Made by a program: the position numbers and the translations under genes. A stretch of DNA of 64,000 nucleotides from Minisyncoccota bacterium (GTDB taxonomy: Bacteria > Patescibacteriota > Minisyncoccia > Phycocordibacterales > UBA5272), in the NCBI GenBank assembly GCA_041651055.1, contig JBAZJW010000001.1, positions 691,702 to 755,701 on the forward strand. Reading direction: 5' to 3'. The stretch's first letter is position 1. The number at the start of each line of letters is the position of its first letter. Shown here piece by piece: positions 3,882 to 60,575 of this stretch. Under the pieces are notes generated by a model, which made no database searches, was not told the DNA's origin, and worked only from the letters and a program-made list of their open reading frames with translations.

Positions 3882-4077
3882 CGCTATGTGCCTCATAAAT
3901 AATAAGCTTAAAGTCTTCCCAAAAAGCACAATTCGTGCTAGAATAACCACATTCATCCAATCGGGCAAATCAGGATTTGGACACCTGAGCATATCACTTC
4001 GAGCATAATTGACGCTTACCAAACAGGTATTTCGGAGAAGAGATAATGTGGCACGAGGCAAATGTATTATTAAACGC

Positions 4078-4170
4078 AGATTTTAGATTTTAGATTTTGG
4101 ACTTTAGATATATTGCATAAAGTAATGTATCGAGTCTCATCTAAAATCTAAAGTCTAATCTCTAACATCT
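4078..4170. repeat. Palindromic intergenic element built from 7-bp TAGATTT / AAATCTA units (family copy 1), abutting rpsB start codon
   Basis: Left arm agattttagattttagattttggactttagat. Right arm atctaaaatctaaagtctaatctctaacatct ends directly at the ATG 4171. Confidence 0.7.
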
Positions 4171-4848
4171 ATGTCAAACATCAATAAAGAAGCTCTTGCA
4201 AAAGCAGGCCTCCAATACGGCTACTCACGTACTCGTCGTCATCCATCAGTAAAGCCTTTTATCGAAGGTAATTACAACAATGTTGACTTTATCAACCTCG
4301 ACACAACAAAGACTCAGCTTGAAAACGCTACCGCGTTCCTCGCCTCAATGCACGCTGCAGGAAAGGTTATTTTGTTCGTTGGTGTTAAACCAGAAATCCG
4401 CCAAATCGTAAAAGAAGTAGCACTTTCACTCAACGCTCCATACATCGCTGAACGTTTCATCGGTGGAACACTTACAAACTTCCCACAAATCAAGAAGCGT
4501 ATCGAAAAGCTTCATGATCTTTTGAAGAAGAAAGAAACAGGTGAACTCGCTGTGTACACAAAGAAAGAACAGCTTCTCATCCAGCGTGATATCGATAGAT
4601 TGGACCGTGACTTCGGAGGCATCTCTTCACTTACAAATATTCCTTCAGCTATTGTCATGATCGACTCTCGTCATGAAGATATGTGTCTCAAAGAAGCAAA
4701 GCGTCTCCACATCCCTGTGGTTGCACTTTGTAATACTGACTGTACACTGGAAGGTATCGAGTATCCTGTTGTCGGTAATGACGGATCTGTAGCGTCTGTA
4801 CGTTTCGTACTCGAAACAATCAAAGAAGCTCTCGCTACGACAGCGTAA
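4171..4848 (+). CDS. rpsB: 30S ribosomal protein S2
   Basis: Characteristic S2 N-terminus (AGLQYGYSRTRRHP...) and length. Confidence 0.9.
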   Translation: MSNINKEALAKAGLQYGYSRTRRHPSVKPFIEGNYNNVDFINLDTTKTQLENATAFLASMHAAGKVILFVGVKPEIRQIVKEVALSLNAPYIAERFIGGTLTNFPQIKKRIEKLHDLLKKKETGELAVYTKKEQLLIQRDIDRLDRDFGGISSLTNIPSAIVMIDSRHEDMCLKEAKRLHIPVVALCNTDCTLEGIEYPVVGNDGSVASVRFVLETIKEALATTA

Positions 4849-4922
4849 AAGTAAAACAGTGAGGAATTGTATTAGATTCGTATTTACTAAAAACTAAAAA
4901 CTGGAAACTAAAAACTATTTTT

Positions 4923-5797: not shown

Positions 5798-5798
5798 A

Positions 5799-5922
5799 GC
5801 CTGTTTCAAAATTGACGATCTGCTTGTTATTTTTAAGAAAAAGTGTTTCAACGTACACATTAGTACGTCTCCAAACTTTTTCTTAAAAACAACTGCGCAT
5901 CTCATTCAATTTTGAAACAGGC
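5799..5922. repeat. Intergenic element bounded by perfect 16-bp inverted repeat GCCTGTTTCAAAATTG / CAATTTTGAAACAGGC; internal motif shared with 98..215
   Basis: Arms at 5799..5814 and 5907..5922. The interior carries CCAAACTTTTTCTTAA..CTGCGCAT, which recurs at 103..137, plus hairpin CAACGTAC..GTACGTCTCC. Confidence 0.65.
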
Positions 5923-6907: not shown

Positions 6908-8170
6908 ATGATTGCTTCTATTTTACAAGGGCTCATGTATCCGTTCTTGTTTTTGTCTATGTATTTTCAAGTGCTTCTGTTAATATCTTTTTTTGAAAAT
7001 AAACGACGCATTAAACGTGAAGAAGACCATGAGGTGAAGGTATATCCGACGGCAACCGTTGCTGTGCCGTGTTGGAATGAAGAGCGGACACTCGCAGCGA
7101 CACTTGATTCATTACTTTCTCTTGAATATCCAAAAGACAAACTTTCTATTGTCGTCGTTGATGATGGGAGTACCGACAACACGCTTGCAATAGCGAGGGC
7201 ATACGAGCAATCACACAAGGATCAGATTACAGTGCTTACTAAAGAAAATGGTGGCAAGCATACGGCGGTGAACATGGCTCTCGAAAGATCAAATAGTGAA
7301 CTTTTTGGATGCCTCGATGCTGATTCATTTGTTACACCGACAACACTTAGTGTTATTGTTTCTTATTTTGATGCAGACCCTAAGGTTATGGCTGTGACTC
7401 CATGTATTCACATTCGTAAACCAAAAACACTTATTCAGCGCATGCAGGCGATTGAGTATTTGATGGGAGTATTTTTGCGAAAGGCATACGGTTCGCTTGA
7501 TGCTATTCAGGTGACACCTGGCCCATTTTCTTTTTTCCGTCGTGAGATTTTTGCGACAATTGGGAATTATCATAAGGCGCACAATACAGAAGATTTTGAA
7601 ATTACGTTACGTATGCATAGGGCTCACATGAAAATTGTGAACTCACACAAGGCGCTCGTGTACACCGTGGGTCCAGAAACTGCGAAAGGATTCTTTTATC
7701 AGCGTCTTAGATGGGCTCGGGGATTTCTTGAAAATTCACTTGACTACAAAGAATTATTTTTCAAAAAAGAATATGGAAACTTCGGCATGTTTACCCTACC
7801 GATGGCCTTCTTATTCTTTTTTTATGGACTCTATGCGGCTCTTTTCTCATACTACAGCATACTTTCTTCTGTGAGCACATCTGTGAAAAAGTGGTTGACT
7901 GTTGGCTTTCATCCACATATTCCAACCTTTGATATTTTTTATCTGAATACAACAGTCATGTCATTTATTATTATGGTGATGTTGACTATGTTTTTGCTTG
8001 TGCTTTATATCGGTAATACACTTTCAGATGATAGACAGGAATTTTACCGTAACTTCCCACTCTTCTTTATCCTTTACCCACTCTTTGTTCCGCTCTTTTT
8101 GGGGCGAGCTATAGCAGATACATTTATGAAGAGAAAGAATGAGTGGGTTCTGCAGGATACCAAAAAATAG
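6908..8170 (+). CDS. Family-2 glycosyltransferase, processive (cellulose/chitin-synthase-like) with C-terminal membrane domain
   Basis: VVVDDGSTDNT, GCLDADS (DxD) and QRLRWARG (QxxRW) motifs; multiple C-terminal TM helices. Confidence 0.75.
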   Translation: MIASILQGLMYPFLFLSMYFQVLLLISFFENKRRIKREEDHEVKVYPTATVAVPCWNEERTLAATLDSLLSLEYPKDKLSIVVVDDGSTDNTLAIARAYEQSHKDQITVLTKENGGKHTAVNMALERSNSELFGCLDADSFVTPTTLSVIVSYFDADPKVMAVTPCIHIRKPKTLIQRMQAIEYLMGVFLRKAYGSLDAIQVTPGPFSFFRREIFATIGNYHKAHNTEDFEITLRMHRAHMKIVNSHKALVYTVGPETAKGFFYQRLRWARGFLENSLDYKELFFKKEYGNFGMFTLPMAFLFFFYGLYAALFSYYSILSSVSTSVKKWLTVGFHPHIPTFDIFYLNTTVMSFIIMVMLTMFLLVLYIGNTLSDDRQEFYRNFPLFFILYPLFVPLFLGRAIADTFMKRKNEWVLQDTKK

Positions 8171-8271
8171 ATTTTAGACTTTAGAGATTAGATGTTAGAT
8201 TATTCAGCACGACAAGAAGAGAGTATGTATTTGTATGACTCTAAAATCCAAAATCTAATATCTAAAGTCTT
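8168..8271. repeat. TAGATTT-unit palindromic element (family copy 2); its first TAG is the GT2 stop codon
   Basis: Left arm tagattttagactttagagattagatgttagatta; right arm ctctaaaatccaaaatctaatatctaaagtctt. Confidence 0.7.
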
Positions 8272-8294
8272 TGGCATTATGATATAATGCCATC

Positions 8295-17065: not shown

Positions 17066-17254
17066 TTCGTCTAAAATAACCCATCTACTTTGTTGTGTTC
17101 GTCGCTCGCTCGTCAACGTACTCTTTCGTACGTCTCCTCGCTCGCTTCTCCACGCCGCGTAGCTGAGTCATTTTATACAAACTAGGGACCCCTGAATCCT
17201 GTGTCTCGCTTCTAAAACAATTTCTGACTTAGCTGGGTATCGTTGAAACTATTT

Positions 17255-17290
17255 TTAATTAAAAAAAGCGCCCATTTGCACGGGCGCTTG
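17255..17290 (-). terminator. Rho-independent terminator of the minus-strand gene 17305..17709
   Basis: Hairpin AGCGCCC-GTGCAAAT-GGGCGCT followed by T7 on the minus strand. Confidence 0.6.
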
Positions 17291-17304
17291 AAGGCGAGTC
17301 TTCT

Positions 17305-17709
17305 TTATTCCGAGGCGAGGATCTTGCCAATTCTTTTTTGATATTTCTCTACACGGGCCAAAAGTTTTTTACTCCCACCCGAGTTTAAACGTAAATAATC
17401 CATGGCAATTTTCACATCTTTCATTTGTGCTTTTTGCCAGGATGGATATATGCTTTTTGCGTGCTCAATCATCCACTGCTCCGTTTCATCTCCGATTCTT
17501 GTTCGGGCTGCAACAAGCTGTTGTGGATCAAATGGTGCCAGCACCTTGTCCAAGAGCTTAAGACACAGAATCATTTTTTCTGCCTTCTCTTTCCGCTTTG
17601 CTATAAATTTTGACACATACGACACACCCTCTAAAACGCAAAGGAAGAGAAGGGCAAGGATTGAAAGAACTACAACGACCGGATCGAATTGTATTAAACT
17701 TGTGTTCAC
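17305..17709 (-). CDS. Hypothetical membrane-anchored protein
   Basis: 134 aa, N-terminal TM helix, no known motif. Confidence 0.4.
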   Translation of the reverse strand: MNTSLIQFDPVVVVLSILALLFLCVLEGVSYVSKFIAKRKEKAEKMILCLKLLDKVLAPFDPQQLVAARTRIGDETEQWMIEHAKSIYPSWQKAQMKDVKIAMDYLRLNSGGSKKLLARVEKYQKRIGKILASE

Positions 17710-17829
17710 GATGAAACTCCTCTGGTTGGTTTATTTGAAACTACCACAATCGCTTAACATCGTCAACTGAACACTTTTACTTTTGTCTCTCATTGTAGTA
17801 GAGTGGTGGAGGATTTCTTTAACCCTCTA

Positions 17830-18545
17830 AAGGAGTAGAAAGTGACAATAATAGTTCTAGATAGTACAGGAGGCGAGGGTCTCAACGGGATTCTCATTGA
17901 AGTGTTGCCTGACACTCTCATCCTCACTCTCAGTACAGTCTTCCTTGATTCGTGGGGCGACGAACGAGATATTTGCCACCTTCTTGATGCTCTTGAGGGT
18001 GCGGCGGACGAGGTGCCGTGTGGCATTCGTTCCGATGGAAATAATCCAGTTAACCTTGTCATAGTGGACGATCGCCGTGAGCCCGTTCTTGGACTTGTCC
18101 AATCGCTTGCGCTAGGGCTTGGAGATCTTGGAGACTCCTCCGTTGGATTTATTTCGAAGAGACCAAGTCTCCATCCATACGGTCCACTAAAACATGGAAA
18201 GAAAGGAAAGGCAAAGAAATGGTGAAAACAATCTGTTCTTGTGGTGTATGCTGTGAACACCGGCCACCACAAACGTGCCGAATTTTGGCCGAACGTTCTG
18301 ACGAAGCAAGAAGAGGTGCGCTCCTTCAGCTTGGGGTTGAGTGCCACCTGCTGACCCTGTCAACTGAGATGGGGCAGCCTGTCATCCAGGCGACCCCTTC
18401 AGATCCCCATAACGGGGACTTCCACGATGAGGCTCTTCCTGCTTGGGGAGAGTCTGCCGTACCCGACATGCTCTGAAATATGTCCGTCCGTGAGCGCTTC
18501 AAGCTCAAATGCCTTCGAGACATCTCGTCGGCTTTTTTATTTGTA
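17830..18545 (+). other. GC-rich (~50%) 0.7 kb segment without credible CDS; candidate large structured ncRNA or decayed foreign gene, ending in a + strand terminator
   Basis: Only low-complexity Ser/Arg/Pro-rich or Leu/Asp/Gly-rich ORFs overlap on both strands; local stems (e.g. GGAGACT/AGTCTCC); terminator-like hairpin + T6 at about 18500..18545. Confidence 0.2.
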
Positions 18546-18548
18546 TCC

Positions 18549-18577
18549 TTGATATATAACGATTTTTATGGTATAAT
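18549..18577 (+). promoter_or_regulatory. Sigma70-type promoter TTGATA-N17-TATAAT with TGg extension; predicts a near-leaderless mRNA for the 18587 gene
   Basis: -35 18549..18554, -10 18572..18577; ATG at 18587, only about 9 nt after the -10. Confidence 0.6.
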
Positions 18578-18586
18578 GCACACCTC

Positions 18587-21799: not shown

Positions 21800-21932
21800 A
21801 GTCTTTTTATAGTACCAGAAAAAGGAGATAGTAAAAAGTTTCTAAAGTTCATAAAGATAAAAGTCGAAATTCGGGCACCGTCAGAATTCCTTTATGAACC
21901 TTACAACGTTATGAACTTTCAGACTCTTGTCC

Positions 21933-21960: not shown

Positions 21961-22032
21961 GAAGTAACCTGCTAGAGGGAATATGACAAGAACACAGAAA
22001 TGAGAATCTAGCAACTAACCCTAACCTAAACT

Positions 22033-22593
22033 ATGACACCACTTTATATTGTTATTGGAATACTTGTTGTGCTCTTACTTGTTGTTGTTGGCATCTATAA
22101 CGGCCTTGTTACATCGCGCATGCGTGTGCGTGAAGCATGGTCAGATATCGACGTACAAATGAAGCGTCGTTTCGACCTTATTCCTAACCTTATTAACACA
22201 GTGAAGGGTTCGACGAATTTCGAAAGCTCTACGCTCGAGAAAGTGATTGAAGCTAGAACAAAAGGCCTACAAGCAAGCACACCTTCTCAGGTAGGTGAGG
22301 CTGATGTTGCTATGCGTGGGGCACTCACAGGATTCTTTGCTCTTGCAGAAAGTTATCCAGATTTGAAATCGAACCAAAACTTCATTGCACTTCAATCTGA
22401 GCTTTCAGATACAGAAAATAAAATACAAGCAGCACGTCGTTTCTATAACAGTGTTGTCACTGAGTACAATACAAAGATAGCAACTGTTCCTGCGAACATC
22501 TTTGCGAATATGTTTTCTTTCACAGCATCAGAATTCTTTGAATTAGAAGCTGGTGAAGAAGCTGCGCGCAAACCCGTCGAAGTAAAGTTTTAG
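22033..22593 (+). CDS. lemA: LemA family membrane protein
   Basis: N-terminal TM + RMRVREAWSDIDVQMKRRFDLIPNL, a LemA hallmark. Confidence 0.85.
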   Translation: MTPLYIVIGILVVLLLVVVGIYNGLVTSRMRVREAWSDIDVQMKRRFDLIPNLINTVKGSTNFESSTLEKVIEARTKGLQASTPSQVGEADVAMRGALTGFFALAESYPDLKSNQNFIALQSELSDTENKIQAARRFYNSVVTEYNTKIATVPANIFANMFSFTASEFFELEAGEEAARKPVEVKF

Positions 22594-22664
22594 TTTTTAT
22601 GGTGGATATGTGGATTTTGTATTTTCAAAACTCCTAACCCCTAACTGTTAGCTCCTAACGACTT

Positions 22665-25355: not shown

Positions 25356-25384
25356 CTTTGAAAACAATCTGTTCTACTTTTTTT

Positions 25385-25441
25385 CGGAGAAAGGTAGCAA
25401 CGGGGTAACCTGTTCGAGAGTTCAAATCTCTCCGCCTCCGC
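25385..25441 (+). repeat. Direct duplicate of the 3' half of tRNA-Ser(GGA), starting inside the anticodon loop
   Basis: GGAGAAAGGTAGCAACGGGGTAACCTGTTCGAGAGTTCAAATCTCTCCGCCTCCGC is identical to the tRNA from the anticodon stem 3' strand to the 3' end. Confidence 0.75.
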
Positions 25442-25449
25442 AAAATCGC

Positions 25450-25636
25450 GAGCGTACTCGCGACCAGATTTTGCTAGTGCATTTCAAGGAGCGTACTCGC
25501 GACTATGAATATGCCTCCGCAAACAAATATAAAAAGACTACTAAAATCAGAAGTTTATTTTGTGTGAGCGTACTCGCGACCAGATTTTGCTAGTGCATTT
25601 CAAGGAGCGTACTCGCGACTATGAATATGCCTCCGC
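25450..25636 (+). repeat. Two 71-bp tandem units (period 116 bp), each ending in tRNA-acceptor-like GCCTCCGC
   Basis: Unit gagcgtactcgcgaccagattttgctagtgcatttcaaggagcgtactcgcgactatgaatatgcctccgc at 25450..25520 and again at 25566..25636; internal 15-mer gagcgtactcgcgac twice per unit. Confidence 0.8.
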
Positions 25637-25663
25637 TCTGAAAAGAATCAATTTACTTTGTGT

Positions 25664-25747
25664 CGGAGAAAGGTGATAAGGTGAAAGCCTTCACGGGTTC
25701 GAATCCCGCACCCTCTGCTTTGCTCGGGAGAAAGGTAGTAATAGGCG
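25664..25747 (+). repeat. Two further anticodon-loop-to-3'-end tRNA fragments (a different Ser/Leu-type tRNA, then a diverged copy)
   Basis: CGGAGAAAGGTGATAAGGTGAAAGCCTTCACGGGTTCGAATCCCGCACCCTCTGC, then CGGGAGAAAGGTAGTAATAGGCG; all fragments begin with the same GGAGAAAGG junction. Confidence 0.6.
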
Positions 25748-25829
25748 ATTTTTAAGCGTAAAAATCGCGTCGAAATTAGCAAATTTCGACGTAAATAAAT
25801 CGCACTGTCTCCTTTAAAAATAACCCTTC

Positions 25830-32449: not shown

Positions 32450-33676
32450 ATGAAACATCTTACGCCCATATACTTTGACCACGCTGCGACGACACAAGTG
32501 GCACCGGAGGTTCTTGAGGCGATGCTTCCGTATTTTGGAAAGGAGTATGGGAACCCTTCGTCGATGTATGCGTCTGGCAGAAAGGCTCGTGCTGTCATGG
32601 AGCGCGAAAGGAAAAACATTGCCACGATATTGGGATCTGAGGCAGAAGAGATACTCTTTACAGGATCCGGCACTGAATCAGACAACATGGCAATTCTTGG
32701 AATTGCCCGCGCGAATAGGTCGTATGGCAATCATATTCTTGTTTCTTCTATTGAGCATAAAGCTGTTCTTGAAGCTGCAAAGCAATTATCCAAAGAAGGA
32801 TTTCTTATTGAATATATTCCGGTAAACAAAGAAGGATTGATTGATGTGGAGGATTGTATGGCGCGTATTACCGATGCAACCATTTTGATATCTGTCATGT
32901 ATGCCAATAATGAAATAGGAACGATACAACCGATTAAAGAACTGGGGAGGAGAATACAAGAAGTACGAAGTAGGAAGCAAGAAACTCCTAACGAAGAACG
33001 AAGAACGAAGAACGATGCCTGCCCTATCTTTCACACCGACGCCTGCCAGGCCGCTGGACACCTATCGCTTGACGTCCGCACACTCGGTGTTGATTGTATG
33101 ACCATAAACGGCTCCAAGATATATGGTCCGAAAGGTGTCGGTGTTTTGTATAAACGTAACAGTGTGCCTATCGAACCAATTATTTTTGGAGGAGGACAAG
33201 AACGAGCTCTTCGTAGTGGAACGGAGAATCTTCCGTCCATAGTGGGTATGTCGTACGCGCTTACTCGTGTAGAAAAAAGAAGAGAAGAAGAATCCAAAAG
33301 ACTGATCGCACTTCGTGACTATTGTATGAGCGAGCTTGTTTGTATTCTTCCTGATGTGGTGATAAATGGCAGCTGCACATCTCGTTTGCCGAATAATATT
33401 CATATCTCAGTGCCCTTTGTAGAAGGTGAGTCCATGGTGCTTATGTTAGATGAAGAAGGAATAGAAGCATCCACCGGGTCCGCCTGTTCGGCGAGCGACT
33501 TACAAGTGTCTCATGTTCTTACCGCCATCAATCAGGACACGTCGCTTATGCACGGCAGTCTTCGTTTTTCTTTTGGAGAGGCGACTACCAAGGAAGAGTG
33601 TGATTATCTTCTCACTGTGCTACCTGGTATTATTAAACGACTACGAAGCATGTCACCACTAACTATTTCTCTATGA
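32450..33676 (+). CDS. iscS: Cysteine desulfurase (IscS/NifS family) carrying an about 20-aa in-frame insertion
   Basis: PLP-lysine SSIEHKAVLE, INGSKIYGPKGVGVLY, catalytic Cys loop STGSACSAS. Start placed at MKHLTPIYFDHAATT, just after the nrdG stop. Confidence 0.8.
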   Translation: MKHLTPIYFDHAATTQVAPEVLEAMLPYFGKEYGNPSSMYASGRKARAVMERERKNIATILGSEAEEILFTGSGTESDNMAILGIARANRSYGNHILVSSIEHKAVLEAAKQLSKEGFLIEYIPVNKEGLIDVEDCMARITDATILISVMYANNEIGTIQPIKELGRRIQEVRSRKQETPNEERRTKNDACPIFHTDACQAAGHLSLDVRTLGVDCMTINGSKIYGPKGVGVLYKRNSVPIEPIIFGGGQERALRSGTENLPSIVGMSYALTRVEKRREEESKRLIALRDYCMSELVCILPDVVINGSCTSRLPNNIHISVPFVEGESMVLMLDEEGIEASTGSACSASDLQVSHVLTAINQDTSLMHGSLRFSFGEATTKEECDYLLTVLPGIIKRLRSMSPLTISL

Positions 33677-34110: not shown

Positions 34111-34223
34111 CGAGCTTCTTTGTTAAAGTCAAACTTTTATCGTTGCCGTACCAGTAAGTACGTCTTCTCAAAAAGTTTAACTTTGCCTCGAATCTCATTC
34201 AAGTCTTCAAGTCCTTAAAATAC

Positions 34224-41167: not shown

Positions 41168-41289
41168 TTATCTCATCAGACAAATAGCTTTCATAATTCT
41201 GTTACTCAACATCTTGGGTGATAGAATTTTTTGTTTGTACTATCTTGCTATATAAAAAGCCACCTCTTTCGGTGGCGGGATGACTACTA

Positions 41290-41400
41290 TTGTATACAGT
41301 AGTATGGGTATTGGTAGTCGTGGCAGGCAGGCCACGTACTTTGCTTCGCACCTTCATGGGTGGTGAAGGTAAGCGCGTACGGAGGACGATGTCCTAAAAC
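41290..41400. ncRNA. Candidate small structured RNA/leader, GC-rich nested hairpins upstream of typA
   Basis: Outer GGCAGG/CCTGCC, inner CGTAC/GTACG and ACCTTCA-TGGGTGG-TGAAGGT stems; flanked by terminator-like hairpins at 41245..41270 and 41489..41516; strand unresolved. Confidence 0.2.
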
Positions 41401-41488
41401 CTGCCTTGTATGCCACAACTATCTATAATCCTACATCCAAAAAGTGACTAGCACAATAGCAGAAAATGTGTTATTATGGTAGCCATCT

Positions 41489-41516: not shown

Positions 41517-41590
41517 TAGAGCATTAGTATCGCATTTGTATGTATTTGCACTACTAATAACTAGCAACTAATAACTAGTAACTATCATTC

Positions 41591-43378: not shown

Positions 43379-43495
43379 ATTGCTTTATCTACTGCGTTAT
43401 AGAAAATTTTTCCTCCACGCGCCGTACCATATGTACGTCTTGGTCGTAAAAATTTTCTATGCCTTGTATCTAAAACAATTTCTGCCTTACGGTTC

Positions 43496-45102: not shown

Positions 45103-45185
45103 GGAATATTTTCGGATATTTTCTTGATTTTAGTGGAACAAAATGAATGTAAGGAAATGGTTATTCGTACTTGATTCGATTCTTG

Positions 45186-45217
45186 GATAAAAGTAAAAAG
45201 CCACCCGGTAAGGGTGG
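45186..45217. terminator. Bidirectional terminator hairpin between the RDD gene and rnpB
   Basis: AAAAAGCCACCC-GGTAA-GGGTGGCTTTT with A/T runs on both sides. Confidence 0.6.
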
Positions 45218-45221
45218 CTTT

Positions 45222-45610
45222 TCCATATGTTCTCTGTCTATAAGCCGAATTCTGTTTTTGTGTAGACATGTATCTAGCTCGTTAATTGCTCAATGAGTCA
45301 AGCGACACTCCCGTATTACTACGGGCACGGTCTTGCACACACGTATGTATTTAGCCGTTTCAGCCGGACTAAACCGGATCGTTTCTGTTCGCAACACGGT
45401 GGTCACCCACGACGGGCATTACCCGCTACGCTTCCAATTTTGCCCACCAGAGGTGGCTGCAAAATTGAGAATCCTGAGCTTGTCGAAGGATAGTCCCTCA
45501 ACTTCGTTCGGGACACTCAATTCTGCAACTGCCTATGGCAGGCAGAATTGGTGTGTGTTCGGACTTTCCTCACGATATTACTATCGCGCGTCTACCCAAC
45601 AAAGAACAAA
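45222..45610 (-). ncRNA. rnpB: RNase P RNA, bacterial type A
   Basis: Minus-strand read gives P3 hairpin CGCGAUA-GUAA-UAUCGUG followed by P4 5' strand GAGGAAAGUCCGAAC. Downstream come CCAUAGGCAG and GCGGGUAAUGCCCG. The 3' part CUAGAUACAUGUCUACACAAAAACAGAAUUCGGCUUAUAG parallels E. coli CUAGAUGAAUGACUGUCCACGACAGAACCCGGCUUAUCGG. P1 pairs UGUUCUUUGU with ACAGAGAACA. The ends are approximate. Confidence 0.8.
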
Positions 45611-45679
45611 ATAACTATACGATATATTATTACCTTTGTCAAAGAAGTGAGAATATATATGGTATACTAGGATATCTCT

Positions 45680-51250: not shown

Positions 51251-51277
51251 TATTTCATTTGCGTATTTTCTAAAAAC

Positions 51278-51583
51278 TTGAAACTTAAAACTCTCCTGAT
51301 ATACTGGCCTCATATGGATACACAAAATACTCAAACACAAGGAACTCAAACAGTTGAAATTTATAGTACGGCATCATGTCACTTTTGTCATATGGCAAAG
51401 GATTGGATGGCAGCAAAAAATATTCCTTTCAAGGATTACAATGTCGGTGAAGATTTAGTAAAGCGAAAGGAAATGGTGGAGATGACGGGTCAGCTCGGTG
51501 TGCCGGTTATCAAAATAGGGGACGAAGTGATGATTGGATTTAATCAGGAGAAAATGGCGCAGTTACTCGGGGTAGCGGTATAA
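51278..51583 (+). CDS. Glutaredoxin-like protein (NrdH/Grx family)
   Basis: VEIYSTASCHFCHMAKDWM CxxC in a thioredoxin fold; GVPVIKIGDEVMIGF. Possible true start at MDTQNT (51314). Confidence 0.75.
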   Translation: MKLKTLLIYWPHMDTQNTQTQGTQTVEIYSTASCHFCHMAKDWMAAKNIPFKDYNVGEDLVKRKEMVEMTGQLGVPVIKIGDEVMIGFNQEKMAQLLGVAV

Positions 51584-53463: not shown

Positions 53464-53594
53464 AATGTATATATCGATTTAGTCAGAAATTGTCCTAGAT
53501 GCTAGGCGTGGGAAAAGTTTTGTCGGAGACGTACGAATAGTACGTTGACTGAAAAACTTGGGGCCCACAACAACGCAGATGGGATAATTTATGG

Positions 53595-54143: not shown

Positions 54144-54254
54144 AAATAAATATTACCAGTTAGATGTGTATGCACGCAGTATACCTCTAGTGTTGTCAAT
54201 AAAGGTGAAAAGTTATACACATGTACAGTAGTGGAGAGTGAAGAGGAGAGAGTC

Positions 54255-54290
54255 CAGAGTAAAATACAAGCGGCGCCGTAGGCGCCGCTT
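54255..54290 (-). terminator. Terminator hairpin downstream of valS (minus strand)
   Basis: ACAAGCGGCGCC-GTAG-GCGCCGCTTGT, 12-bp perfect stem. Confidence 0.6.
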
Positions 54291-54343
54291 GTATTAATGT
54301 TCTCTCTTGTCTCTTTCCTGTCAACTCTAGATTTATTAATAAT

Positions 54344-56596: not shown

Positions 56597-57127
56597 ATGC
56601 TAAGCAAACAGTCAACCCTCCTCAAAAAAGGATCAAAGAAAGTCATCGAAAAAGTGAAGAAACTCTCGCCGAATACTAAGCAATTACCAGACCACCACTT
56701 TAAGGCAGTGAAAGTGAAGCGTGGATTGGATGGGCTCGGTCTTTTTGCAGAAGAACAAATCAAAAAAGGGGAAATGATTATCGAATATATCGGCAATATT
56801 CTTACCAAAGAAGAGGCGGATAAGAAGACGACAAGTCAGTATCTTTTTGAGGTGAGTAGAAATAAAACTATTGACGGAACGCCGAGATGGAATATTGCAC
56901 GATATTGTAATCATGCGTGCAACGAAGCGGCGAATGCCGAGAGTGATATCACAAAGGGTCGCGTCATCATTAAGGCGATCAAGACCATTAATATAGGCGA
57001 TGAGATTGTGTATGATTACGGAGAAGAGTTTGTGAAAGAGCACATCGCACCGCACGGATGTCGATGTAAAGCAAAAAAGCACGCGTATGGAATGGAGGGA
57101 GGAGATGAGTCAGATGTTAGAAATTAG
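56597..57127 (+). CDS. SET-domain protein-lysine methyltransferase
   Basis: GLGLFAEEQIKKGEMIIEYIG, NHACNEAAN (NHSC-type motif), GDEIVYDYGEEF, and post-SET-like CRCKAK cysteines. Confidence 0.75.
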   Translation: MLSKQSTLLKKGSKKVIEKVKKLSPNTKQLPDHHFKAVKVKRGLDGLGLFAEEQIKKGEMIIEYIGNILTKEEADKKTTSQYLFEVSRNKTIDGTPRWNIARYCNHACNEAANAESDITKGRVIIKAIKTINIGDEIVYDYGEEFVKEHIAPHGCRCKAKKHAYGMEGGDESDVRN

Positions 57128-57243
57128 ATTTTAGACTTTAGAGTATACAAATACGATATGAGACAAAAAGCGGCCACAAAGTGGCCGCTTTTTGTGTTTT
57201 TGCGTTGTCCTCTAACGTCTAAAATCTAATACCTAAAATCTAT
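57125..57243. repeat. TAGATTT-unit palindromic element (family copy 3) with an embedded terminator hairpin; its first TAG is the SET gene stop codon
   Basis: Left arm tagattttagactttagag at 57125..57143; centre AAAAAGCGGCCAC-AAA-GTGGCCGCTTTTTG; right arm cctctaacgtctaaaatctaatacctaaaatctat. Confidence 0.7.
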
Positions 57244-57601: not shown

Positions 57602-57875
57602 CTGGGCATAATCATCTCATTTGCTTCGTTGGGTAATATTTTTTCTCCCGCAATGTACTATTCGTACATCTTGGTCGAAAAAATATTACCCGCCTTGCAA
57701 CTAAGACAATTTCTGCCCAGAAATTTTCGAATAAAATCATTCCATAAACAATGACGGTCATTGTTTTTTTGAATATTGAATATTGTCTCCATTATATATT
57801 CCACTCTTTCTTTCTTATTTTGTTCTCTCTAAAAATGAAGGCAAAAGCTTGTAAATATGCTATAATCTATCAACT

Positions 57876-60419: not shown

Positions 60420-60515
60420 AAGCTAAAGGACGGAAGCTAGAAGAGAGAAGTTGGAAGTGGAAAGCTGGAAGCGGGGAAAATACAAAACAAGAAGTGACGC
60501 CGTAGGCGCAGCTTC

Positions 60516-60575
60516 TTGTGCTATAATTTTAGTATCCGCATTATCTAATGTCTAAAAGCTAATATCTAACATCTG
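60516..60575 (+). promoter_or_regulatory. Extended -10 promoter TTTGTGCTATAATTTT followed by a single TAGATTT-family arm abutting the murF ATG
   Basis: TGcTATAAT at 60519..60527. The same 15-mer plus flank recurs upstream of tRNA-Glu at 62547..62563. Arm atctaatgtctaaaagctaatatctaacatct at 60544..60575. Confidence 0.55.

Follow-up and report, generated by a model that had tools for sequence, protein, structure and literature searches.

Tandem heptad arms with a CTA/TAG core at gene boundaries of a Minisyncoccota genome and its relatives

Cyanobacterial genomes carry short tandemly repeated repetitive (STRR) heptamers, and for decades heptamer repeats have been reported beside the start codons of cyanobacteria, and lately of Beggiatoa, without an established function. 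TAACTGA forms intergenic direct repeats beside start codons in Beggiatoaceae, cyanobacteria and Bacteroidetes, with a tally of 169 direct sets and one indirect repeat (MacGregor 2015, PMC4679880), and TTTTGAA and GAC(C/T)AAT heptamers occur in Nostoc PCC 7120 (bioRxiv 10.1101/2022.06.06.494920); translational control has been proposed for both groups, the function of neither being established (PMC4679880; bioRxiv 10.1101/2022.06.06.494920). According to Mrazek et al. (2007), as summarised in PMC4679880, heptanucleotide repeats are the commonest long simple repeats in prokaryotes. Here we analyse a stretch of 64,000 nucleotides (hereafter the window) from a Minisyncoccota bacterium of the candidate phyla radiation (CPR) (GenBank assembly GCA_041651055.1, contig JBAZJW010000001.1, positions 691,702 to 755,701), which contains tandem heptad arrays at gene boundaries, several of them as inverted pairs of "arms". 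These elements are a paired, length-capped variant, restricted to a CPR clade, of the known heptamer repeats at start codons, and we found no description of them in the literature on CPR bacteria.

The CPR arrays share with the TAACTGA and Nostoc heptamers the tandem arrangement of 7-nt units (2–6 copies) in intergenic DNA, a forward orientation a few nucleotides from a start codon that lacks a Shine-Dalgarno (SD) sequence, stop codons in all three frames that limit overlap with coding sequence, and a patchy phylogenetic distribution; TAACTGA is one base away from the common CPR unit TAACTAA. They differ from the TAACTGA type in being capped at 4–5 units, in having units that are degenerate outside a conserved CTA/TAG core, in that inward inverted pairs around terminators or promoters hold 43% of the arrays of our clade sample (defined below), and in residing in a CPR host with mostly leaderless genes. 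The STRR heptamers are likewise tandem heptanucleotide arrays in intergenic DNA, but theirs are longer arrays whose copy number varies and most of which stand unpaired. Repetitive extragenic palindromic (REP) sequences and their doublets (REPINs) are extragenic palindromes of proteobacteria, reportedly treated by Bertels and Rainey in 2011. Together with the bacterial interspersed mosaic elements (BIMEs) they resemble the CPR arms as extragenic units of about 35 bp, often in inverted pairs that span about 100 bp in total and have a spacer of lower conservation, in genome-specific families at gene 3' ends with the potential to form RNA or DNA hairpins; the TCTAAnn family of the window likewise consists of three doublets and one singlet, and 16 palindromes are present in the clade sample. 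On the other hand, REPs are small palindromes with a 5' GTAG-type head, depend on REP-associated tyrosine transposases (RAYTs) and have no start-codon register, whereas the arms are tandem direct heptads, not hairpins, with [G/T]TAG in every unit rather than once per arm. A last parallel is offered by the ring-shaped attenuation proteins HutP and TRAP, whose RNA sites are UAG-N4-UAG-N4-UAG and (G/U)AG repeats, respectively. The left arm at 57111–57152 and those of loci L005, L016, L030 and L213 similarly carry UAG at a 7-nt period before a terminator hairpin (in the window, five times upstream of the hairpin in 57111–57195), but the CPR elements differ in occupying many housekeeping gene boundaries and in having a complementary partner arm, and no homologue of HutP or TRAP came up in a Pfam search of the called genes of the window. 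Further, purely tentative leads are the initiation triplets of primase (CTA/TTA), the heptamer sites of cold-shock proteins, DnaA-trios, integron attC sites and gyrase sites.

Seven arms of about 33 bp (31–35 bp), each of five units, are present in the window, and together they make up three palindromes and one single arm. The arms at 4077–4111, 8168–8202 and 57111/57118–57152 read TAG on the plus strand, and those at 4137–4171, 8237–8271, 57208–57242 and 60541–60575 read it on the minus strand. Without gaps the seven align with 21 invariant columns, conserved inner and outer ends and the consensus (A/C)TCTAAnnTCYAAnn(T/G)CTAAnnYCTAAnnTCT. An earlier note, made from the sequence alone, had placed four copies of the element in the window, all of which are present. 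The conserved arm ends speak against the refuting condition that it had named, copies confined to the window with no conserved boundaries. It had pictured a mirrored right arm around an AT-rich centre of 35–60 bp; the arms of a pair are indeed inverted and complementary (at 20–24 of 28 positions, with 7-nt-shifted registers scoring nearly as well), but exact mirror symmetry is absent. The three centres are 25, 34 and 55 bp long and mutually unalignable, and while that at 4112–4136 is AT-rich, that at 57153–57207 is G+C-rich.

These elements are real and non-random. With up to two mismatches, TAGAYTTTAGAYTT has 22 matches in the window against 3.2 +/- 1.5 in shuffles (shuffle maximum 7); tandem arrays of period 7 number nine against none in shuffles, with 0–4 at the other periods between 4 and 12; and in-phase threefold recurrence of TAG, CTA and CTAA is seen at period 7 only. 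Twelve of the 15 window arrays are intergenic, in a window that is 83% coding. The three palindromes are predicted to fold into RNA hairpins at -36.7 kcal/mol (z -7.9), -23.4 kcal/mol (z -2.3) and -60.6 kcal/mol (z -12.5). No Rfam family matches the heptad elements (microRNA matches are generic hairpin noise), and the flanks of the window (5.8 kb and 7.9 kb) contain no further TCTAAnn copies.

The rules that govern the arrays emerge from a clade sample of 61 loci (601 kb) of Paceibacteria-like CPR genomes, in which phase-blind detection found 124 heptad arrays. The consensus unit contains TAG/CTA in 83 of these, against 31 +/- 5 expected, and the unit logo has C at 0.90, T at 0.88 and A at 0.86, followed by W-rich, G-poor positions each at no more than 0.55. 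Array length is narrowly confined, 48 arrays having four units, 45 having five and only six having six or more. Polarity is nearly absolute: a CTA array is followed by a sense ATG in 34 cases and a sense stop codon by a TAG array in 15, the reverse arrangements numbering 1 and 0. Of 38 cases, 27 have their last CTA at a distance of -1, 5, 6 or 7 nt from the ATG, and the stop codon of the upstream open reading frame (ORF) is the first TAG of the array in eight cases, the second in three and the third in two. The capture of stop codons and abutment of start codons that the earlier note had reported are thus genuine and general, and constitute the most informative part of the finding. Array pairs are inward in 32 cases (16 palindromes), outward in three and direct in six; inward pairs often enclose an intrinsic terminator, their interiors (19–84 bp) being unrelated and consisting of terminators, promoters or nothing. 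Heptad similarity between arms is 0.73 within one element and 0.56 between elements.

TAA is the commonest stop codon of the genome (in the window and its flanks TAA is used 41 times, TAG 29 times and TGA only six times), yet the array core is CTA/TAG. A "stop-codon pad" as the sole driver of the arrays is rejected on this ground, since TTA, with T at the first core position, makes up about 5% of units and TGA appears in 4 of 124 consensus units, too rare for a core that would accept any stop codon. Selection for a hairpin alone leaves the CTA/TAG core unexplained, and no wobble signature is seen, although within one site both arms have a heptad in common, as the similarities above (0.73 against 0.56) indicate.

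Comparison of orthologous sites reveals an architecture that is kept while the heptad sequence changes, with some relatives filled and others empty. The organism of the window is Paceibacteria/Nomurabacteria-like. Contigs with an identical RpsB protein come only from its own genome, the nearest other genome has an RpsB 91% identical to that of the window, and heptad arrays are almost absent from relatives with less than 65% RpsB identity. In the tsf leader the periodic CTA is kept in more than 40 diverged genomes with differing spacer bases; most relatives have a single (nCTAnnn)4-6 arm there and ten have a full palindrome. At the glycosyltransferase 3' site six relatives have heptad arms around a terminator and the stop codon TAG, and three have no arms and the stop codon TAA. 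In L213, L214, L017, L019, L035, L216 and L222, members of the TCTAAnn arm family are present elsewhere than at these sites, and about 85% identical arms can be found at non-orthologous sites, for example in the tsf leader of L213 and the murF leader of the window. Near-identical heptad palindromes at L005:10515-10652 and L213:9219-9356 differ only in that the terminator loop is inverted (ggccTACggcc and ggccGTAggcc), which by its sequence reads as the footprint of intrastrand template switching at a hairpin.

Heptad arrays are not confined to CPR bacteria. Exact TAGATTT arrays are common in Microcoleus, Nostoc and relatives and in Flavobacterium, and the layout stop-(TAGATTT)n-loop-(AAATCTA)n-ATG is present in Oscillochloris, Flavobacterium, an Acidobacteriota genome and Sphaerospermopsis; overall, the heptad layout is seen in Flavobacterium, Chloroflexi, Acidobacteriota, cyanobacteria and phage contigs. 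The two polarity counts in other phyla are 7 and 16, against 1 and 0 for the reverse arrangements, but only 6 of 92 arrays there are paired, and in other phyla and phages arrays reach 12–100 units. (TCTAAnn)4 is present in at least 120 viral stretches, and viral contigs of 51–59% G+C contain many (TCTAAnn)4-6 arrays as well as full heptad palindromes before genes; arrays in phage contigs are adjacent to start codons by 42 to 10. Array-rich viral contigs are found among loci L283-L362 (IMG/VR; for example IMGVR_UViG_3300045988_166624), and several of them come from the single metagenome 3300045988.

Within the window (where gene names are Pfam matches on the called genes of the source contig), the arms stand in diverse relations to the neighbouring expression signals. 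The rpsB-leader palindrome consists of a plus-strand left arm at 4077–4111 (CAGATTT TAGATTT TAGATTT TGGACTT TAGATAT), an AT-rich 25-bp centre at 4112–4136 that folds as the hairpin tip, and a minus-strand right arm at 4137–4171, which on the plus strand reads (TCTAAnn)4 and then TCT. The right arm had been said to end exactly at the start codon, and here it does so, with its last base overlapping the A of the rpsB ATG (4171). No gene lies directly before this palindrome; rather, it fills the gap between the rpsB ATG and a conserved structured RNA of about 105 nt (3954–4058, plus strand), which is driven by the promoter TTCCCA-17-TGcTAGAAT (3916–3944, plus strand), and because these two lie upstream the palindrome is situated in the rpsB 5' untranslated region (UTR). 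Compensatory changes are seen in 13 of the 25 pairs predicted for the structured RNA, which is kept in all close relatives and has no match in Rfam; it may be an S2-responsive rpsB leader. In the predicted hairpin fold of the rpsB palindrome the last 17 nt and the AUG are unpaired. Relatives have between leader RNA and rpsB either a spacer of 20–30 nt or a palindrome of like build with other heptads (ACAACCT, ACTTTCT, GCTAAnG, ACTAATA, TCTATAA or TAGACTn), often with a small G+C hairpin in its centre, and in eight relatives a heptad hairpin is inserted at one fixed point near the 3' end of the leader RNA.

At the boundary between the glycosyltransferase family 2 (GT2) gene and pheS, the left arm (8168–8202, plus strand) begins with a TAG (8168–8170) that is the glycosyltransferase stop codon, as the earlier note had it. 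The 34-bp centre (8203–8236) holds a GTATGTATTTGTATGA "head" beside the right arm (8237–8271, minus strand), which lies upstream of the extended -10 box of pheS (TGaTATAAT, 8280–8288), at about -15 to -50 from it, and overlaps the -35/UP region. This box ends 6 nt before the pheS ATG (8295), and pheS is therefore of the leaderless type. The SET gene had been credited with the same kind of stop-codon capture, but here the plus-strand left arm (57111–57152) starts two units earlier within the coding sequence and the stop codon (57125–57127) is the TAG of the third unit. Between the SET arms lies a bidirectional intrinsic-terminator hairpin (57163–57195; A-tract, GCGGCCAC/GTGGCCGC stem, T-tract), and the right arm (57208–57242, minus strand) has no adjoining gene. 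A G+C-rich hairpin with a U-tract is present in the centres at 57163–57195 and 54261–54295, the latter belonging to a palindrome described below, and is absent from the arms and from 4112–4136 and 8203–8236. Finally, the single arm (60541–60575, minus strand) between secA and murF makes up most of the murF 5' UTR, being transcribed because it lies downstream of the murF promoter TGTGCTATAAT (60517–60527) with its TGcTATAAT; it ends 5 nt before the murF ATG (60581), not directly at it as had been claimed. The secA stop codon is itself immediately followed by a non-complementary GGAAGnn array (60432–60476, plus strand), beyond which lies a terminator hairpin (60487–60519).

The start signals of neighbouring genes provide a background for these observations. 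About one third of the 75 genes in the window and its flanks have a strong (T/G)GnTATAAT or TATACT box 12–18 nt before the ATG, and these are probably leaderless; SD motifs are rare among the same genes. Genes with heptad leaders have neither a strong -10 box near the ATG nor an SD sequence.

The interpretation that we prefer, tentatively and without calling it probable, is that the heptad arrays are gene-boundary modules that act mainly in the transcript. The sense-strand order at a boundary would be stop codon, (UAGnnnn)n, spacer, (nnnnCUA)n and AUG, with 4–5 units of TAG and four W-rich bases running from each gene boundary into the spacer. The downstream arm would be a G-poor, SD-less leader in register with the start codon, serving the minority of genes with neither a leaderless start nor an SD sequence, and the upstream arm would begin at the stop codon and close all three reading frames. 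In read-through or long-leader transcripts both arms could pair into an imperfect stem of 25–35 bp that loops out the enclosed terminator or promoter; such a stem might back up termination or protect the upstream 3' end, and might mask the downstream leader. From the patterns described above we infer this RNA-level function, a mode of spread and, from the invariant CUA/UAG core and the fixed unit number, a putative reader of the core, which could be a protein or the ribosome. Arrays may arise and stay uniform through slippage, repair of one arm on the template of the other and ectopic conversion, and upkeep of that kind would give them the look of a dispersed repeat family; for the spread of the heptad family a mobile or conversion-driven origin is likely.

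The ATG register, the sense-strand rule, the persistence of the tsf arm and the use of arrays by phages point towards action in the transcript, and the multi-copy arrays before genes in GC-rich phage contigs argue for an expression signal. Several observations weigh against it. The register of the stem is loose, since 7-nt-shifted pairing nearly equals the best, so the stem is not tightly maintained, and arm mismatches (45 G:T against 34 A:C) include no excess of G:U wobble. The pheS right arm lies outside the pheS transcript because it is upstream of the -10 box, and the SET right arm, as noted, adjoins no gene. The polarity and the inward pairs would equally follow if a symmetric unit had been inserted whole into short spacers, and a reader of double-stranded DNA explains the shared core more simply because CUA and UAG differ as RNA motifs. 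Neither the called genes nor ten small ORFs of the window yielded a candidate reader, and a Pfam scan of these ten unassigned ORFs for HutP, TRAP, cold-shock and ribbon-helix-helix proteins gave nothing at E <= 0.1. An extension of the transcript-level interpretation, which we regard as a long shot, is that (CUAWWAW)4-5 could be a widespread SD-independent start signal, read heptad by heptad by a conserved ribosomal or oligomeric RNA-binding factor in CPR bacteria, several phyla and phages, and that in CPR bacteria its (UAGnnnn)n partner might turn it into a genome-wide termination-translation switch.

The features of a dispersed family invite the explanation that the arms are selfish DNA resembling REPINs or miniature inverted-repeat transposable elements (MITEs), in which a transposase supplied in trans (for example of RAYT type) would recognise the arm of about 33 bp as an element end; two arms would then travel together, a single arm would be what is left of a decayed pair, and position and polarity would mark the places where a compact genome tolerates insertion. 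We consider this unlikely, though by no means negligible. The earlier note had suggested mobile MITE-like sequences, and parts of that suggestion stand: the family is dispersed with conserved inner and outer arm ends, arms about 85% identical lie at non-orthologous sites of other genomes, orthologous sites are filled or empty among relatives, arrays are found within RNA and coding sequence (at the fixed point of the rpsB-leader RNA in eight relatives and inside iscS), the arrangement is consistently inward (32 against 3), the distribution is patchy across the clade with near absence from distant relatives, and copies are present in phage contigs. Other parts fail. The three full copies show no target-site duplication, their outer flanks (aaacg/atgtc, aaaaa/ttggc and gagt/atac) sharing no direct repeat; the interiors are unrelated where a conserved one might be expected; the arms are not mirror copies; and neither a transposase (Pfam) nor a RAYT (Y1 transposase) gene was seen among the called genes of the 78 kb of window and flanks. 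Nor does movement as a unit sit well with like architecture built from different heptads at orthologous sites, with the tight distance from last CTA to ATG or with a single tsf arm that persists in more than 40 genomes. A classical MITE is ruled out, target-site duplication, conserved interior and mirror symmetry all failing, and the arms are not ordinary transposon relics.

Strict 7-bp spacing also calls to mind operators in double-stranded DNA, such as those of the omega repressor of pSM19035, which binds 7-bp heptads in direct and inverted orientation. A small protein with one heptad per dimer, or a nucleoid protein, would then coat the arms and insulate or regulate the enclosed terminator or promoter. 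The fixed number of 4–5 core sites, their inversion around a control region and the overlap of one arm with the -35/UP region of pheS would all suit such a protein. Compared with the omega operators, the heptad geometry fits, but the relation of the arms to promoters is inconsistent, and this explanation is improbable in our view: it accounts neither for the register with start and stop codons nor for the CTA-sense rule of single arms beside starts, the presence of arrays in several phyla and phages would demand a very widespread reader, the four variable positions are common to the arms of one site and differ between sites, and no candidate gene was found in the window.

That heptanucleotide repeats are the commonest long simple repeats in prokaryotes (Mrazek et al. 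2007, in the summary of PMC4679880) is in keeping with a neutral origin, in which microsatellites formed by replication slippage that favours 7-nt units, and by template switching at hairpins that copies an array across a terminator, would be filtered by selection against harmful orientations. The in-frame array inside the iscS coding sequence, the terminator loop inverted between L005 and L213 (TAC against GTA), which points to template switching, and the turnover of heptads at orthologous sites all accord with such an origin. We nevertheless think it quite doubtful as a full account, and a plain microsatellite is excluded by the conservation of the core amid variable positions and by the length cap: CTA is held at 86–90% while the other four positions vary within one array, which slippage cannot achieve because it copies whole units, and arrays stop at 4–5 units in the clade against the 12–100 of other phyla and phages. 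The conserved arm boundaries and the phasing with the ATG do not fit either.

Finally, the earlier note had considered promoter or UP-like modules, and one might imagine tandem -10-like or UP-like elements that recruit or pause RNA polymerase towards the neighbouring gene. All units of the TCTAAnn family contain TAAnnT and thereby match the minimal -10 pattern TAnnnT, the pheS arm and an array at 51270–51293 lie just upstream of a -10 box, and the penultimate unit falls at the usual -10 position of the leaderless genes of the genome. The idea is very unlikely to be right, since the arms have no fixed relation to promoters, the murF arm lying downstream of a strong one and the rpsB palindrome within a 5' UTR. 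Moreover, conservation peaks at the C that precedes TA, a base that does not belong to a -10 box, T fills the final position of the hexamer in only 37% of units, the arms lack the strong (T/G)GnTATAAT signature of the genome's real promoters, transcription from left arms would run antisense into the upstream gene, and a consensus promoter scan gave nothing above shuffle expectation.

Beyond the TCTAAnn family the window contains other heptad arrays, most of them on the plus strand before genes. The earlier note had pointed to CTAAAAA-type repeats upstream of rpmE and tsf, and both are confirmed: (ATTAAAA)4 at 1749–1780, 77 nt upstream of rpmE, and (ACTAAAA)4-5 at 4884–4922, which abuts the tsf ATG (4923). 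Direct abutment is also seen in the prfA leader (AACTAAG AACGAAG AACGTCC TAACGAA TAACTGC at 2212–2251; ATG 2252), in a (CTAACnn)5 array (22628–22664; ATG 22665) and in the typA/bipA leader ((ACTAATA/ACTAGCA)5 at 41551–41590; ATG 41591), and a shorter (CTAACnn)-type array at 22008–22032 stands before the ATG at 22033. A second heptad palindrome, with the unit GAGAGTn / nACTCTC (54231–54330), is located between two minus-strand genes around a terminator hairpin (54261–54295). Inside the iscS/nifS coding sequence, nine in-frame AACGAAG-type units (63 nt, 32956–33018, plus strand) add the charged stretch RIQEVRSRKQETPNEERRTKND just before the conserved FHTDA motif.

Several further repeats and non-coding stretches were noticed nearby. 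An unrelated second family of intergenic palindromes has the core GTAC-N5-6-GTAC followed by gtct..aaaa(n)ttt (2113–2126, 5853–5866, 17118–17131, 34148–34161, 43424–43436, 53531–53543 and 57655–57667), with cores that lie within longer inverted repeats such as gtttcaaaatt...aattttgaaac at 5798–5920. AAAGTC/AAAGTT palindromes of mixed 7- and 9-nt spacing with a small hairpin are found at -665 to -531 relative to the window (L199:5165-5299) and at 21834–21926; they resemble an element after the glycosyltransferase gene of L006 and perhaps represent a sister family of the heptad arms. Downstream of tRNA-Ser, the region 25357–25829 contains an exact 71-nt duplicate (25450–25520 and 25566–25636) and several pieces that resemble tRNA 3' halves (e.g. 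...ggttcgaatcccgcaccctc), and looks like the scar of repeated integration at tRNA-Ser. Neither Rfam nor tRNA/tmRNA searches matched anything in the long gene-free, G+C-rich and hairpin-rich stretches at 45103–45679, 41280–41430, 17066–17841 and 18226–18586, which may encode divergent RNase P, signal recognition particle (SRP), 6S or other structured RNAs.

The CPR clade thus presents an unusually clean version of the heptamer repeats long noted beside start codons, with a three-base core, a fixed unit number, polarity, a codon register and paired arms, in a small and mostly leaderless genome, and these rules turn a vague "repeat" into specific mutations that are testable in reporters. Should the arrays act as a signal for translation or termination, they would offer a route to start-codon selection besides SD pairing and leaderless initiation, better gene calling and expression prediction for CPR genomes and phages, and a simple sequence marker that links phages to their hosts. 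If they are instead selfish DNA, they would represent a mobile element of a new kind, whose ends are tandem repeats.

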